A stretch of 64,000 nt of DNA from a virus (IMGVR_UViG_2939127364_000001); one strand, 5' to 3'. Shown: positions 1-64,000, counted from the first letter of the stretch. Program-made: numbers and translations. The notes: a model not told the origin generated them from the letters alone.

Positions 1-1056
1 ATGAGCGTAAACGACAATAAAAACATTGCGATAAGCGAAGCATTTTCCGAAACAGACAAAAAGACCGGCGAAGTTGTTACGTTAGTTCCTAACACCAACA
101 ACACAGTTCAGCCTGTTGCTCTGATGCGTCTTGGTCTCTTCGTTCCGACGCTGAAATCGACATCCAGGGGTAGAAAGGGGCAAATGGTCTCTATGGACGC
201 CTCCGCTGAACTCAAACAGCTGTCTCTGGCCAAAGCCGAAGGGTACGAGGATATAAGGATTGCTGGTCTTCGTCTTGATATGGATAACGATTTCAAAACA
301 TGGGTGGGCATCATCCACGCGTTCGCCAAGCACAAGGTTGTTGGTGACACCGTCACGTTGCCGTTCGTCGAGTTCGTCAGACTTTGTGGCATACCAACAG
401 CCAGATCGTCCGCGAAGTTACGTAAGCGCCTGGACAGCTCTCTAAGTCGTATCGCCACAAACACCATCTCATTCCGCAGCAAAGGCTCTGAAGAGTATTA
501 CGTTACGCACCTTGTGCAGACGGCAAAGTACAGTACCAAGAATGACACGGTCGAACTGAAGGCCGATCCTAAGATTTTCGAACTTTACCAGTTCGACAAA
601 AAGGTGCTTTTGCAACTTCGGGCCATCAACGAACTCTCCAGAAAGGAATCCGCGCAGGCGCTCTACACCTTCATTGAAAGTTTGCCACCAGACCCGGCGC
701 CAATCTCATTGGCTCGCTTACGCGCCAGACTTAACTTAACCAGCCGTACCATTACCCAGAATGCGACAGTCAGGAAGGCGATGGAGCAACTGCGAGAGAT
801 CGGCTATCTCGATTACACTGAAGTGAAACGCGGCAGCTCGGTCTACTTCGTCATCCACTATAGACGGCCGAAGTTACGTTCGGCACTGCCGCCATCTATG
901 GCCACGCCTGAAGATCCAGAAGATATCTTGTCAGGTGATGATCCGGAGGACATTATCGATGTTGCTCCTGAAGAAAAAGACGGGGAAATGGTCATGTTGA
1001 GCAAGGAAGAACTGGCGATTCTCGAAGAGCTGCGCAAGGCAAAGGCTCGCAAATAG
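1..1056 (+). CDS. repA: Plasmid replication initiator RepA (RepFIB / P1 RepA family)
   Basis: 351 aa ORF; recalled similarity to F-plasmid RepFIB and P1 RepA ([65 protein letters not shown]); followed by iteron array. Confidence 0.9.
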
Positions 1057-1061
1057 CCCAA

Positions 1062-1660
1062 CCACTGTAGAGAGTAAAAAGGCTCACTATCCACTGTAGT
1101 GAGCCTTTTTGTTTATCGGAAATGCAATATCCACTGTAGTGAGTAAAAGAAACCGAAGAATAACCACTGTAGGCAGTGCGCACAAATCGCGAAGTAAATG
1201 TTAGTGGTTGCAAACATAGATAAAACAAGGGCTGAGAGGTTAGCGGTCACTGGGTATCTCTGTTAAGTCTACTCTCTACAGCGGTTATCGTCGCTCTCCT
1301 CATTGTTGACTATCCACTGTGAAGAGCAGAATTGGCTGACTTGACCTCTATCCACTGTAGTGAGTGGATATCCGTTTAAAACAGCGAAGATTTACTCTCC
1401 ATAGTGGATATCCGCTGGAGGGGGCATTCCATCACTCTCTATAGTGGTTGTTTGTAGTCAGTGAACGCCTGTTTACTCACTACAGTGTATAGCGACCCCG
1501 ATAATCACCAATTTACTCACTACAGTGGATAGTTGATATCGTGGCAGAGGGTTTGCTCACTACAGTGGTTGGGGTGCATACCTGAAGGGTGTTCTACTCG
1601 CTACAGTGGTTATGAGCCGGATTCACACGCGGTGAGCTGGCTACTCACCGCAGTGGATAG
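1062..1660. repeat. Iteron array: about 12 copies of a ~19-bp repeat with core CCACTGTAG(TGAG), in direct then inverted orientation
   Basis: Copies seen near 1062, 1091, 1131, 1164, 1315, 1352 (direct) and 1397, 1436, 1485, 1515, 1555, 1596, 1643 (inverted); typical RepA-binding incompatibility repeats downstream of repA. Confidence 0.8.
1081..1113 (+). terminator. Rho-independent terminator after repA, overlapping first full iteron
   Basis: Stem GGCTCACTA / TAGTGAGCC with 7-nt loop followed by TTTTTGTTT. Confidence 0.55.
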
Positions 1661-1665
1661 TGTTA

Positions 1666-1830
1666 TCAGTGGATTTTCTTCAGCAGACCCCAGAGTGTCC
1701 CGGCCTTCGTTGCGAGCTTACCTGTTTCCGGATCGTACATGCGCCATTCACGTCGCTGGTGGACAATATACCCATCTTCACGTTCCAGTCGTTCCAGTAC
1801 GCCGGACTGCTTGAACCCTTTGGCACGCCA
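1666..1830 (-). pseudogene. 3' fragment (54 codons) of a gene truncated by IS1 insertion
   Basis: Open frame on minus strand ending ...YDPETGKLATKAGTLWGLLKKIH-stop at 1666-1668; frame runs directly into IS1 left end at 1831 with no start codon. Confidence 0.35.
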
Positions 1831-1885
1831 GGTGATGCTGCCAACTTACTGATTTAGTGTATGATGGTGTTTTTGAGGTGCTCCA

Positions 1886-2161
1886 GTGGCTTCTGTTTCT
1901 ATCAGCTGTCCCTCCTGTTCAGCTACTGACGGGGTGGTGCGTAACGGCAAAAGCACCGCCGGACATCAGCGCTATCTCTGCTCTCACTGCCGTAAAACAT
2001 GGCAACTGCAGTTCACTTACACCGCTTCTCAACCCGGTACGCACCAGAAAATCATTGATATGGCCATGAATGGCGTTGGATGCCGGGCAACAGCCCGCAT
2101 TATGGGCGTTGGCCTCAACACGATTTTACGTCACTTAAAAAACTCAGGCCGCAGTCGGTAA
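1886..2161 (+). CDS. insA: IS1 InsA
   Basis: 91 aa, [43 protein letters not shown]... Confidence 0.9.
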
Positions 2162-62463: not shown

Positions 62464-62475
62464 TTCTCGCTCCTA

Positions 62476-62502
62476 CAAAAAGGGTGGGCGTATAGCCCAC
62501 CC
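62476..62502 (-). terminator. Hairpin terminator downstream of putative capsid gene
   Basis: GGGTGGGC-GTATA-GCCCACCC with T-run on minus strand. Confidence 0.5.
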
Positions 62503-62536
62503 TTTAACATAGATAATTACTTATCTACTGCACTGA

Positions 62537-63412
62537 TTAAATTTTTACATTGGTCAGTGCAGCGATAGCCTTATCGTGCTTATTCGCCAGAGAGCAGTAC
62601 CACTTCACACGGGTACGTACTGCGTCTTTGTTCTGTACAGTGCCAATGTTTTCAACAACGATACCTGCGTTGTCGCCGCCATACAGACCAGTAACGCCGT
62701 TCTCTTCTGACAGATGCAGGCAGTAGATGCTTGCTTTGCCAGAATCGGTCGGGATGAAGTCGTTGATGATGAACGGAACGCCGTTATGACACAGCATCGG
62801 ACGACCGAAGTTCTCCATCATGATTTCAGACGGGCCTACGTTTACTGTACGCAGCAGCGCACGGTAAGCACGCAGGTGCTCTGAACGCATCATGATGCAG
62901 TCAGCACCAAGATCTTTCACCGCATCGACCAGTTCGTCGAACATAGAGAAAGTCATAGATGCACCGGCGATATCGATCTTCTGATCTGCGTGCATCAGGC
63001 GTGGAATGCCGTCAAACGCCTTGTTGTTGGAGCTGGAGTCACCCAAAATCAGGTTGCGACGGAACGCACGAGCCAGACCTTTAACTTTCTGACGAACCTG
63101 AATAGCCAACTGGTTGTTGGTGTCGGCCATAGTGGTCGCCAGGAATTTATCAACGTCTACGTCACCAGCCAGAATACGCAGTTTCGCAACGCATTCTTCG
63201 AAGGTTGCTGCACCTTCAGGGATGGTGTCGTTAACGTCGATGAAGGTAGCTTCACTCAGCGTTTTTTCACGGTTGTACAGATATGCCTTTGAATTAATTT
63301 TCATAAAAGGCAGGATGGCAAACAGGTCATCGCGATCAATGATAGTTTCGATCACACCCTGTTCGAGTTCGTTGTTAGACAGCTTTTCAGCTTCTTCACG
63401 CAGTAATGGCAT
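62537..63412 (-). CDS. Putative major capsid protein
   Basis: 291 aa; position after scaffold-like gene and before terminator and decoration-like gene; no motif-level confirmation. Confidence 0.4.
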   Translation of the reverse strand: MPLLREEAEKLSNNELEQGVIETIIDRDDLFAILPFMKINSKAYLYNREKTLSEATFIDVNDTIPEGAATFEECVAKLRILAGDVDVDKFLATTMADTNNQLAIQVRQKVKGLARAFRRNLILGDSSSNNKAFDGIPRLMHADQKIDIAGASMTFSMFDELVDAVKDLGADCIMMRSEHLRAYRALLRTVNVGPSEIMMENFGRPMLCHNGVPFIINDFIPTDSGKASIYCLHLSEENGVTGLYGGDNAGIVVENIGTVQNKDAVRTRVKWYCSLANKHDKAIAALTNVKI

Positions 63413-63437
63413 CTATCAATTCCCTTTGATTTAGATG

Positions 63438-64000
63438 TTACTTAAGTCCAATTTTCCCCAGACCGGAGGCCAACTTATCCATAGTCGACTTGTTCTTCGG
63501 TTGGGATATTGTGTAGGTCGATTTGGAATGTGAGCCTACACCCTGCTTGGCTTCGCTACGCATCAATGCGTCAGCTTCCGGATCTGCCCGCACAATGCGT
63601 TCAATCGCGGATTCAAACGGCAACGGCTTACCTTCACCGTCAACCAGAACAGTTCGTTCTTTATGACCTGCCGGTTTGTCATAACCCACTACGCTACCGT
63701 CTTCACCCACTTCAAAATGAGAACCGTAGATCACGCGGGCTTTTGCCGGAGTCATCAGAACTTTGTCACGTAGGAAGAGAGAGTTACTGAAGGAAGCGCC
63801 CACGGTCATCTCGACTAATTGAGATTTCAGTGATGCGTTTTCACTTTCCAGTGCTGCATAACGTTCGTCACGCTGTGCCAGCTCTGCCTGGTGTGCTTCG
63901 ATCATCTGTTTTTTAACAGCATCGAACTCACCACGACGCTCCAGTTCAGCTTGCTCCGCCTCACGACGTGCGTTTTCTGCGGCCTGTTCAGCTTCTAAAA
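63438..64000 (-). CDS. Putative scaffolding protein (partial, runs off window edge)
   Basis: Coiled-coil sequence; frame remains open to position 64000. Confidence 0.3.
   Translation of the reverse strand, partial: LEAEQAAENARREAEQAELERRGEFDAVKKQMIEAHQAELAQRDERYAALESENASLKSQLVEMTVGASFSNSLFLRDKVLMTPAKARVIYGSHFEVGEDGSVVGYDKPAGHKERTVLVDGEGKPLPFESAIERIVRADPEADALMRSEAKQGVGSHSKSTYTISQPKNKSTMDKLASGLGKIGLK

Follow-up and report, generated by a model that had tools for sequence, protein, structure and literature searches.

A 64-kb viral sequence as the probable larger part of an SSU5-type Escherichia coli phage-plasmid

Identity of the element

We analysed a 64,000-nucleotide stretch of viral DNA (hereafter the window) and interpret it, with high confidence, as some 55-60% of a phage-plasmid, circular and ~110-120 kb long by inference from its relatives, that belongs to the SSU5 supergroup and within it to the E. 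coli pLF82 (Cyrano)/pSLy3 clade. Such an element would be a temperate siphovirus whose prophage is a low-copy, non-integrating plasmid. The element type is already known, and this is an ordinary SSU5-type E. coli phage-plasmid despite its transposon-borne fimbrial operon and its defence genes.

A sequence-only reading had proposed a phage-plasmid architecture, and the analysis bore this out, as a Rep_3 replicon, a ParA operon, a tyrosine recombinase, and lysis, lambda-type tail and replication genes were all found, interleaved on one collinear molecule. That reading had also described the plasmid functions as "fused" to a siphovirus genome, which misdescribes the element because the plasmid-type genes form no block and lie scattered among the phage genes: repA is at position 1, a HicA-like pair at 16 kb, parA and toxin-antitoxin (TA) genes at 36-38 kb and, in relatives, ParB genes beyond 64 kb. 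This dispersal is common to all members, and the order is the same in SSU5, Cyrano and pSLy3. A recent cointegrate, in which a RepFIB plasmid joined a siphovirus genome or a prophage entered a plasmid in place of an ancestrally hybrid replicon, could draw on the tyrosine recombinase and on the exchange of replicons within the clade (amino-acid identity to the pSLy3 Rep is only 48.5%, and pSLy3 has no DNA match to 1-1667). Against it stand the scattered genes in their shared order, the lack of conjugation or other plasmid backbone genes in the window, and a nearest plasmid record (98.9% identical) that MOB-suite types as IncFIB and non-mobilizable, and we consider such an origin extremely improbable.

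Kinship with SSU5 was likewise upheld, with 74% of the backbone covered by SSU5 at 79.7% identity and SSU5 homologues for 43 of the 51 backbone genes (tblastn; 40 at >=80% coverage), while Cyrano has 49 of the 51. The claimed placement in the SSU5/pHCM2 group holds at the level of the supergroup, but by backbone identity the window is closer to the pLF82/pSLy3 clade than to SSU5/pHCM2 proper. In earlier work that defined the group, the majority of phage-plasmids typed as IncFIB fell into the SSU5 supercommunity (PMC7969092).

Plasmid state of the relatives

Evaluating 5,426 complete E. coli genomes, we found the replication block at 296 places, 293 of them on plasmids and 3 of them short chromosomal ones; the chromosomal place among the matches listed spans 14% of the query. 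The pattern named beforehand as contrary to a phage-plasmid, phage genes matching best to integrated chromosomal prophages only, is thus not what was seen. Of the full records, the closest is a plasmid of 116,378 bp that is circular, and the best plasmid matches are likewise circular, typed as IncFIB and non-mobilizable. Relatives at 96-99% identity, these best matches among them, measure 112-122 kb, and relatives as a whole span 105-122 kb. For comparison, the tyPPing size ranges are 85-134 kb for pSLy3 and 94-126 kb for SSU5_pHCM2 (PMC12977533).

An extrachromosomal state of the window's element is thereby indicated by proxy, through the plasmid places of its relatives and the circularity of the closest records. 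A tyrosine recombinase is encoded at 24888-25991 (minus strand; Pfam Phage_integrase E 2.9e-10), as had been claimed, and it is present in Cyrano and pSLy3 and absent from SSU5. Adjoining it is an HTH regulator (24507-24893, plus strand; weak HTH_19 match), a putative lysogeny repressor by the Cyrano annotation, which is 100% identical to CYRAN_45 "putative repressor". These two genes are what an integrated chromosomal prophage, or a regular alternation between integrated and plasmid states via the integrase, would have in its favour. That reading is already largely refuted, and we give it almost no credence: besides the plasmid and chromosomal counts above, the first base of the window is that of the repA ATG, a layout it shares with plasmid records rotated to repA, and SSU5, which has no integrase, is maintained likewise. 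An occasional integrated state is possible through the integrase.

Replicon, partition and toxin-antitoxin genes

The iteron-controlled RepA replicon reported for 1-1660 was confirmed, with a Rep_3-family, RepFIB-type initiator and ~14 iterons. RepA (1-1056, plus strand; Pfam Rep3_N E 2.4e-11, Rep3_C) is 100% identical in amino acids to the repA product of NZ_CP073940.1, 93% identical to the pMT1/SSU5 type, and 60-64% identical, over 82-97% of the protein, to classical RepFIB initiators (annotated as "replication protein RepFIB" or RepB-family, from F-type plasmids); together with the IncFIB typing of the nearest record, this sustains the RepFIB-type label. The downstream field at 1056-1660 holds ~14 copies of a 19-21-bp repeat with the core CCACTGTAGTGAG in both orientations (repeat families D1-D3, inverted pairs I1-I25). 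Because the window begins at the repA ATG, upstream iterons are visible only in a relative, the closest circular record (L007), where the CCACTGTAGTGAG motif has 7 copies just upstream of repA (8 locus matches against 1.03 expected).

For partition, a ParA/ParG-like pair had been proposed at 36301-37325, of which ParA and a conserved operon partner stand, while ParG homology is not detectable and the likeness is one of functional analogy only. The gene parA (36660-37325, minus strand) encodes a small Walker-type partition ATPase of 221 aa with matches to Pfam MipZ, AAA_31 and CbiA and to NCBIfam ParA_partition (E 3.4e-33), the last covering profile positions 6-202 of 203 at 114.9 bits, under the model's 180-bit cutoff. 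Its P-loop occupies residues 9-16 and it carries no N-terminal HTH, as in type Ib. Behind it lies a gene for a 119-aa protein (36301-36660, minus strand; phrog_5111) whose start codon overlaps the parA stop by one base and which in relatives always directly follows ParA, making this a conserved two-gene operon; we describe it, from operon position and a weak RHH-family match, as a putative ribbon-helix-helix (RHH) adaptor or regulator. In this protein the N-terminal tail is basic and disordered, and there are also an RHH-like segment and two extra C-terminal helices; an RHH fold is no more than hinted at by a weak aCcr1 match (E 2e-4) and the placement of helices in a model of low confidence. 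Among 13 members of the partner family there were no Pfam RHH or ParG matches, and no assignment to a known centromere-binding family was reached. As to ParG itself (1P94), hhalign of the family profile gave a probability of 0.1%, and homology to it was rejected.

Upstream of parA, the palindrome AAACAAGTTGTTT (37361-37373) is a candidate operator, present as a single exact copy in the window and lying in a block that is invariant across 7 loci, divergent Klebsiella-type ones included. A search of the parA operon flanks found no centromere repeat array and no repeat family, this one conserved upstream palindrome apart. Active partition would be served by a ParA-family ATPase in a conserved two-gene operon.

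Two candidate TA modules had been named, one of which is well matched. At 37605-38442 (plus strand), a TacA-type RHH antitoxin (37605-37913; Pfam TacA1 E 8.6e-26) precedes an AtaT/KacT-type GNAT toxin (37921-38442; Pfam GNAT) with a 7-nt gap, and the toxin matches solved AtaT/KacT chains over its full length at E 1e-78 to 1e-73 (6GTS 1.4e-78; KacT 5ZGN 4e-74; 6AJM). By homology and arrangement, we class it as a predicted type II GNAT/RHH system of the AtaRT/KacAT/TacAT kind. The other module (15939-16787, plus strand; PADLOC PDC-M06A/B) pairs a HicA-like 74-aa protein with a 187-aa HTH partner that hits PADLOC PDC-M06B as well as PHROG 2620 "excisionase and transcriptional regulator" and has no HicB profile match; with support for HicA likeness at fold level only, it is kept as a candidate second TA or defence module.

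Phage replication, virion and lysis genes

Many replication genes are present, as claimed, although neither the replisome nor the phage genome is "full" within the window because the terminase and portal genes, both ParB-like genes and the gene for the epsilon exonuclease are absent from these 64 kb and are found past position 64000 in relatives. On the minus strand run a RecA/UvsX-type recombinase gene split by an intein that contains a LAGLIDADG endonuclease (10495-12834; Pfam RecA, Intein_splicing, LAGLIDADG_3), an intein common to Cyrano and missing in SSU5 and pSLy3; a 5'-3' exonuclease, a gp32-type SSB and a UvsY-like mediator (13103-15685; Pfam 5_3_exonuc_N, gp32; PHROG matches and Cyrano annotation); dnaE for a Pol III alpha-type replicative polymerase (16818-20324; Pfam DNA_pol3_alpha, finger, PHP, HHH_6); an AAA_5 (MoxR-like) ATPase paired with a CobT/VWA protein and conserved in SSU5 (20505-23944; Pfam AAA_5, CobT, CobT_C); four tRNA genes, Ser-TGA, Thr-TGT, Tyr-GTA and Asn-GTT (27016-27669; ARAGORN); and an ATP-dependent DNA ligase, two conserved unknowns, a primase and a DnaB-like helicase (29096-34414; Pfam DNA_ligase_A_M, Toprim_2/DNAG_N, DnaB_C).

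The claimed lysis cassette (38475-39905, minus strand) comprises holin (39570-39905), endolysin (38864-39583; PHROG E 9e-89), Rz (38611-38862) and Rz1 (38475-38690), the last two Rz-like spanins, with holin, endolysin and Rz 99-100% identical to their Cyrano counterparts. Also on the minus strand are a side tail fibre (1548 aa) with a T-even-type Gp38 adhesin (281 aa) at 39968-45469 (Pfam GP38 E 8e-70; Gp34_trimer, Peptidase_S74), a region whose nearest relatives outside phage-plasmids are T-even phages, and a lambda-type tail module at 45563-57421 that shows the expected succession of tape measure, M, L, K, I and J (Pfam TMP_3/Tape_meas_lam_C, Phage_min_tail, Phage_tail_L, NLPC_P60+JAB, Phage_Tail_Tip/Phage-tail_3), where the I homologue was recognised from its place in the module and from being 99% identical to the Cyrano "tail tip protein I". 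The remaining stretch (57408-63905, minus strand) carries tail chaperone candidates, an Ig-domain tail tube, tail completion, neck, head closure, adaptor, Ig-like decoration and major capsid genes and a partial scaffold-like gene, at 82-100% amino-acid identity to CYRAN_4 through CYRAN_14 with Pfam Big_2 and capsid-fold matches.

Phage completeness is inferred from relatives, since terminase, portal and the ParB-like genes fall outside the window. The element might be a domesticated or defective phage-like plasmid, maintained as IncFIB and retaining phage genes from which infectious particles no longer form. Cryptic or non-inducible behaviour is reported for some SSU5-like plasmids, K. pneumoniae p2 among them (PMC8969562), and three IS elements and ~8.5 kb of cargo have entered the element studied here, whose essential packaging genes lie outside the window. 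We nevertheless hold defectiveness to be unlikely: the capsid, neck, tail, fibre and lysis genes in the window are present and intact, its structural, lysis and replication genes are all full length against Cyrano, mostly at 98-100% amino-acid identity, and the IS insertions are confined to the accessory repA-recA interval, which is variable in pSLy3 too. In addition, terminase and portal directly follow in Cyrano, pSLy3 and the closest record, the closest full records retain both, and the relatives' 112-122 kb falls inside the tyPPing range of 85-134 kb.

Accessory cargo

Accessory cargo sits at variable spots, namely the IS1-fimbrial transposon between repA and recA, the PD-T4-3-like nuclease beside parA, and the swapped fibre tip with its Gp38 adhesin. 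The left arm of the composite transposon is a complete IS1 (InsA/InsB; 1830-2599, plus strand; Pfam Zn_ribbon_InsA, HTH_Tnp_IS1, DDE_Tnp_IS1; terminal inverted repeats), and its right arm survives as an inverted 58-bp IS1 end (7913-7970, minus strand), 98% complementary to 2542-2599, whose junction also occurs in a chromosomal island. Between them lies a chaperone-usher fimbrial operon (2816-7737, plus strand) of YehD-like subunit, PapD-type chaperone, usher and adhesin-like subunit (Pfam PapD_N, Usher E 1e-189, Fimbrial; record annotation), found in 128 of the 5,426 genomes. An IS3-family element (7971-9301, plus strand; Pfam HTH_Tnp_1, rve; end sequences), whose ends we take to be IS2-like, is inserted into the right IS1 copy. 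The nuclease gene (35481-36248, plus strand) encodes a GIY-YIG protein homologous to the PD-T4-3/CMoRE defence gene (PADLOC PD-T4-3 E 1.3e-23; Pfam LEM-3_GIY-YIG) and matches PDB 9U7U over residues 12-230 (E 2e-15).

Proposed life cycle

Returning to the phage-plasmid interpretation, RepA would bind iterons on both sides of its gene and fire the origin, with handcuffing limiting copy number as in RepFIB and P1, while ParA and its small partner would segregate the copies, the TA modules would penalize loss of the element, and the tyrosine recombinase would resolve dimers as Cre does in P1. Upon DNA damage, loss of the repressor would let infectious particles be made from the replisome, packaging, head, tail and lysis genes that the element itself encodes. 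Experiments showed Cyrano to be a plasmid, measured at 5.5 copies per cell and 4.2e6 virion genomes per mL, with 39-fold induction by ciprofloxacin and siphovirus particles bearing a 259-nm tail (PMC9928086). By analogy with this 96%-identical relative, the window's element may have a similar copy number and produce virions.

Comparison with known systems

The replicon resembles RepFIB of F-type plasmids and P1-type iteron control in its Rep_3 initiator and in the 19-21-bp iterons that flank the gene, but differs in lying inside a phage genome without conjugation genes, and its handcuffing and copy control are presumed from these systems. The partition operon is like type Ib ParF/ParG of TP228 in its ~220-aa ParA without an N-terminal DNA-binding domain and its translationally coupled small protein, whereas the partner here has 119 aa and two extra C-terminal helices and shows no sequence kinship to ParG, and no repeat-array centromere was found.

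Among whole elements, Cyrano (pLF82 of AIEC strain LF82; OV696614.1 / NC_011917.1) aligns to 91.5% of the window backbone at 96.2% identity with the same gene order and shared genes mostly at 98-100% amino-acid identity, and it has in common the integrase/repressor pair, the KacT-type TA, the HicA-like pair, the RecA intein and the lysis cassette. It differs in that its recA-repA interval is a stomatin-like/cra block where the window has IS1, the fimbrial operon and the IS2-like element, and in that CYRAN_30 is replaced in the window by the PD-T4-3-like GIY-YIG gene; the window also has another fibre tip together with a Gp38 adhesin, a divergent central tape-measure segment, a fourth tRNA (Tyr), a RepA that is only 90% identical, and iterons diverged beyond 1321. 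The subgroup reference pSLy3 (NZ_CP015915.1) matches 83.3% of the backbone at 95.1%; like the window, it has the integrase, the HTH regulator, the identical four tRNAs and, next to the parA operon, the GIY-YIG gene. It differs in having another Rep, in lacking the intein, HicA-like pair and KacT-type TA, and in the group II intron and type I R-M system found at its recA-repA hotspot.

The Salmonella phage SSU5 (NC_018843.1) has the same overall architecture and order, with the same lambda-type tail, lysis and replication modules and with RepA and ParA 93% and 95% identical to those of the window, but only ~80% DNA identity over 74% of the backbone, and it lacks the integrase, HTH regulator, glutaredoxin/Gp49 genes, KacT-type TA, intein and GIY-YIG gene. 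Taking SSU5 as the representative compared for SSU5_pHCM2, these sequence comparisons point to the pLF82/pSLy3 clade as the subtype, away from SSU5_pHCM2.

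Placement among SSU5-type phage-plasmids

Comparing the window with three reference genomes, we found its gene order collinear with Cyrano (the phage form of plasmid pLF82; OV696614.1/NC_011917.1), with plasmid pSLy3 (NZ_CP015915.1) and with the Salmonella phage SSU5 (NC_018843.1). Once the cargo segment between repA and recA was set aside, 91.5% aligned with Cyrano/pLF82 at 96.2% identity, 83.3% with pSLy3 at 95.1%, and 74.2% at 79.7% with SSU5, which stood in for the SSU5_pHCM2 subgroup. Homologues of the 51 backbone genes numbered 49 in Cyrano and 43 in SSU5. The sequence-only reading had called the element typical of the SSU5/pHCM2 group; membership in the SSU5 group stands, but judged by backbone identity the window's clade is that of E. 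coli pLF82/pSLy3, not SSU5/pHCM2 proper. The top plasmid and genome matches were circular plasmids of 112-122 kb at 96-99% identity from pig and poultry sources, headed by NZ_JBWDPM010000001.1 (99.0%) and CP142569.1 (98.9%), and it is from these relatives that we infer the element's full size and topology.

When 5,426 complete E. coli genomes were searched, the ligase-helicase block turned up in 253 (about 5%), with 293 plasmid places against 3 chromosomal ones and a listed chromosomal match covering 14% of the query. The phage genes are thus not confined to integrated prophages, which bears out the reading of a prophage maintained as a plasmid. Plasmid genes had been described as fused to a siphovirus genome; instead, they are spread among the phage genes in an order that is the same in all relatives, and the element is an ancestrally hybrid replicon, not a recent fusion. 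Overall, the earlier observation is confirmed and its interpretation supported, with details corrected.

Replicon

The element carries, as had been proposed for positions 1-1660, a RepA replicon with iterons. The initiator encoded by repA (1-1056, + strand) is 351 aa long and has two recognised domains, Rep3_N (E 2.4e-11) and Rep3_C. Directly 3' of the gene, positions 1056-1660 contain a 19-21-bp repeat whose core is CCACTGTAGTGAG; there are about 14 copies, and they face both ways. Because the window begins at the repA ATG, the upstream control region is missing from it; in the closest circular plasmid record (L007), seven copies of the CCACTGTAGTGAG motif fall within the final 550 bp upstream of repA, and the whole locus holds 8 matches vs 1.03 expected by chance. 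Taken together, the downstream iterons of the window and this upstream set indicate that repA is iteron-flanked, as in RepFIB.

At the amino-acid level, RepA is identical (100%) to the RepA of another E. coli plasmid, 93% identical to the Yersinia pMT1/SSU5 type and, along most of the protein, 60-64% identical to F-type plasmid initiators annotated 'replication protein RepFIB'. Identity is 90% to Cyrano and just 48.5% to the pSLy3 Rep (26358-27572 in L011, the pSLy3 record). A sequence search of RepA against the PDB gave no match, and MOB-suite types CP142569.1 as IncFIB and non-mobilizable. With RepA closer to the SSU5/pMT1 type than to Cyrano or pSLy3 while the rest of the backbone is 95-96% identical to Cyrano/pSLy3 and 80% to SSU5, these sequence identities describe a mosaic replicon.

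Partition operon

A ParA/ParG-like pair had been proposed at 36301-37325, and of this the ParA and a conserved operon partner stand, while ParG homology is not supported. ParA (36660-37325, - strand) is a 221-aa Walker-type ATPase matching the Pfam families MipZ, AAA_31 and CbiA, with an NCBIfam ParA_partition match (E 3.4e-33) that falls under the model's cutoff. Its partner, a 119-aa protein (36301-36660, - strand), is encoded from the final base of parA onward and belongs to phrog_5111, whose function is listed as unknown. In an hhalign profile comparison, using a ParG query whose sequence was checked against 1P94, the probability of homology to ParG was 0.1%. The curated Cyrano record labels the same gene a RelE/ParE toxin, and this label was unsupported by Pfam, phmmer, Foldseek and hhalign: 13 family members searched against Pfam at E values up to 10 returned nothing relevant, phmmer against the PDB gave noise only, and the monomer model found no meaningful Foldseek match in the PDB.

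Gene order gives this protein its place. The gene lies directly behind an approximately 221-aa ParA in SSU5, Cyrano and pSLy3, even where the flanks differ, and the same order recurs in eight other loci, all of those in which the upstream sequence could be read, whose homologues are 47-67% identical; from this conserved order we conclude that the 119-aa protein is ParA's operon partner. It matches the RHH family aCcr1 weakly (E 2e-4), and its AF2 monomer model, although poor (pLDDT 65.5), runs from a disordered basic N-terminus through 'SRTMS' to helices at 48-61 and 70-82, a low-confidence layout that is how an RHH protein would look prior to dimerisation. The protein also has a conserved N-terminal peptide, MGDLAKR, which together with the basic tail and the RHH-like segment would suit a ParA adaptor or regulator of an undescribed family (phrog_5111). 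The protein is therefore probably an RHH-type putative adaptor/regulator and not a toxin, and may be the founder of an undescribed family of ParA adaptors or centromere-binding proteins specific to SSU5-supergroup phage-plasmids.

Upstream of parA, a 13-bp palindrome, AAACAAGTTGTTT (37361-37373), sits inside a 20-bp block that is invariant in seven loci, divergent Klebsiella-type elements among them, and is probably the par operon operator. A motif scan found a single exact copy in the window; a near-copy with one mismatch lies at 34434-34446, upstream of the helicase gene. Neither a repeat search of the parA flanks nor the motif scan of the window found a centromere repeat array, and two ParB-like genes of relatives map to positions beyond the window. 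As a candidate centromere-binder, the 119-aa protein may work via the single conserved palindrome or via sites elsewhere.

Toxin-antitoxin modules

Two toxin-antitoxin modules had been put forward, and the first is solid by sequence homology. It pairs a TacA1-type antitoxin (37605-37913, + strand, E 8.6e-26) with a GNAT acetyltransferase 7 nt downstream (37921-38442, + strand) that matches the solved AtaT and KacT over its full length (E 1.4e-78 to 4e-74). The second, a 74-aa HicA-like gene and its partner (15939-16163 and 16224-16787, + strand), is labelled HicA/HicB in Cyrano; Pfam, NCBIfam and PHROGs made no Hic assignment, and a Foldseek search gave no match. In PADLOC the two proteins matched the paired components of candidate system PDC-M06, at E 1e-18 and 1.5e-32, a system for which we found no literature, and the 74-aa protein is confidently modelled (pLDDT 88) as an alpha-beta-beta-beta-alpha fold. 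This pair is accordingly the weaker of the two, a HicA-like toxin-antitoxin or defence candidate at the level of predicted fold.

Phage genes and recombinase

The lambda-like tail module and the lysis cassette were both found as described. The former runs from the tape measure, in which one segment is divergent, through M, L, K, I and J, with tube, neck, adaptor, decoration and major capsid genes upstream; terminase and portal genes were absent from the window and come immediately next in the closest record as well as in Cyrano and pSLy3. The lysis cassette (holin, endolysin, Rz, Rz1) occupies 38475-39905 (- strand), adjoining but not coinciding with the plus-strand toxin-antitoxin module at 37605-38442. 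Replication and recombination genes include DnaE (16818-20324), a DnaB-like helicase, primase, ATP-dependent ligase, gp32-type SSB, 5'-3' exonuclease, a UvsY-like protein and a RecA/UvsX-type recombinase (10495-12834, - strand) split by an intein that contains a homing endonuclease of the LAGLIDADG type. Since further helicases, the epsilon exonuclease and the genes of nucleotide metabolism map beyond the window in relatives, the replisome here is substantial rather than "full", as it had been called.

The tyrosine recombinase was also recovered (24888-25991, Phage_integrase domain), and the HTH protein adjoining it matches the putative repressor of Cyrano at 100% identity. The window has four tRNA genes (Ser, Thr, Tyr, Asn; 27016-27669, - strand), against three in Cyrano and one annotated in SSU5. 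Outside the window, the closest relatives carry a dihydrofolate reductase (L007 37909-38379; L011 41175-41651) whose annotation is dfrA51, a gene for trimethoprim resistance; it belongs to the phage-plasmid backbone and was newly described as a resistance determinant (PMC12217456).

A fimbrial transposon in a cargo hotspot

Between repA and recA lie a complete IS1 (1830-2599), a four-gene, YehD-like chaperone-usher fimbrial operon (2816-7737), a 58-bp inverted IS1 end (7913-7970, 98% match) and an IS3-family (IS2-like) element (7971-9301) that cuts this right IS1 end. The same module, with identical junctions and a full right-hand IS1, occurs in a chromosomal island of NZ_AP021896.1 adjoining an integrase and tRNA-Leu, which identifies it as an IS1 composite transposon. 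Chromosomes and phage-plasmids alike carry the operon, which was present in 128 of the 5,426 E. coli genomes; PapC/PapD genes had earlier been listed for the shell genome of SSU5 (PMC7969092). As the junctions in this phage-plasmid are the same as those in a chromosomal tRNA island, infection may move the transposon between strains, which would amount to lysogenic conversion in which a phage-plasmid confers an adhesin. That this spread by infection, an undescribed ParA-adaptor family, or both hold strikes us as possible but rather doubtful.

A tRNA-like 3' fragment (GGGGATTCGAACCCCCGATACG, 7850-7912, + strand) lies between the operon and the IS1 end; its chromosomal copy is annotated as an odd 127-nt tRNA-Ser, and the fragment suggests capture of the module from a tRNA-linked island. 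Approximately 1 kb (9302-10335) separates the IS3-family element from the return of backbone homology, and its ORF at 9304-10014 had no Pfam or PADLOC match. The recA-repA interval (1661-10335) is a cargo hotspot, holding a type I R-M system and a group II intron in pSLy3 (L011 13209-25778) and a stomatin-like gene, small unknowns and cra in Cyrano (L003 7498-10143).

Proposed workings and comparison with known systems

Cyrano, 96% identical, is a siphovirus with a 259-nm tail that resides as a plasmid at 5.5 copies per cell, releases virions spontaneously (4.2e6 genomes per mL) and is induced 39-fold by ciprofloxacin (PMC9928086). By analogy with RepFIB/P1-type replicons, RepA would initiate replication at the iterons, with handcuffing restricting copy number; ParA and its small partner would segregate copies as in type I partition systems, and the AtaT/KacT-type toxin would act in post-segregational killing as in type II modules. 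Because integrated copies are essentially absent, the tyrosine recombinase may serve in dimer resolution, and SOS-linked derepression would lead to lytic growth using the element's own replisome.

The element belongs to a group already well described. [quoted passage not shown] What it offers in practice concerns annotation and surveillance: a gene behind parA is mislabelled in databases as a RelE/ParE toxin yet behaves as ParA's operon partner; an infectious replicon can bear a fimbrial operon of the chaperone-usher class, within an IS1 composite transposon that chromosomal islands share; and the element carries defence cargo, namely a PD-T4-3/CMoRE-like nuclease and, as a candidate, the HicA-like PDC-M06 pair.

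Against its relatives, the window differs in several parts. SSU5 is without the tyrosine recombinase and the adjoining HTH protein, the RecA intein is common to the window and Cyrano but not to SSU5 or pSLy3, and the pSLy3 replicon is different. The GIY-YIG nuclease (35481-36248, + strand; PADLOC PD-T4-3, E 1.3e-23; PDB 9U7U, E 2e-15), a homologue of the PD-T4-3/CMoRE defence enzyme that restricts hydroxymethylcytosine DNA, has the same place in pSLy3, whereas an unrelated gene stands there in Cyrano. Relative to Cyrano, the distal fibre is swapped for a T-even-type Gp38 adhesin and a fibre of 1548 aa that has a changed tip and contains Gp34-trimerisation and S74 chaperone domains (39968-45469, - strand), the nearest relatives of Gp38 beyond phage-plasmids being Tequatrovirus-like myoviruses (58% aa identity).
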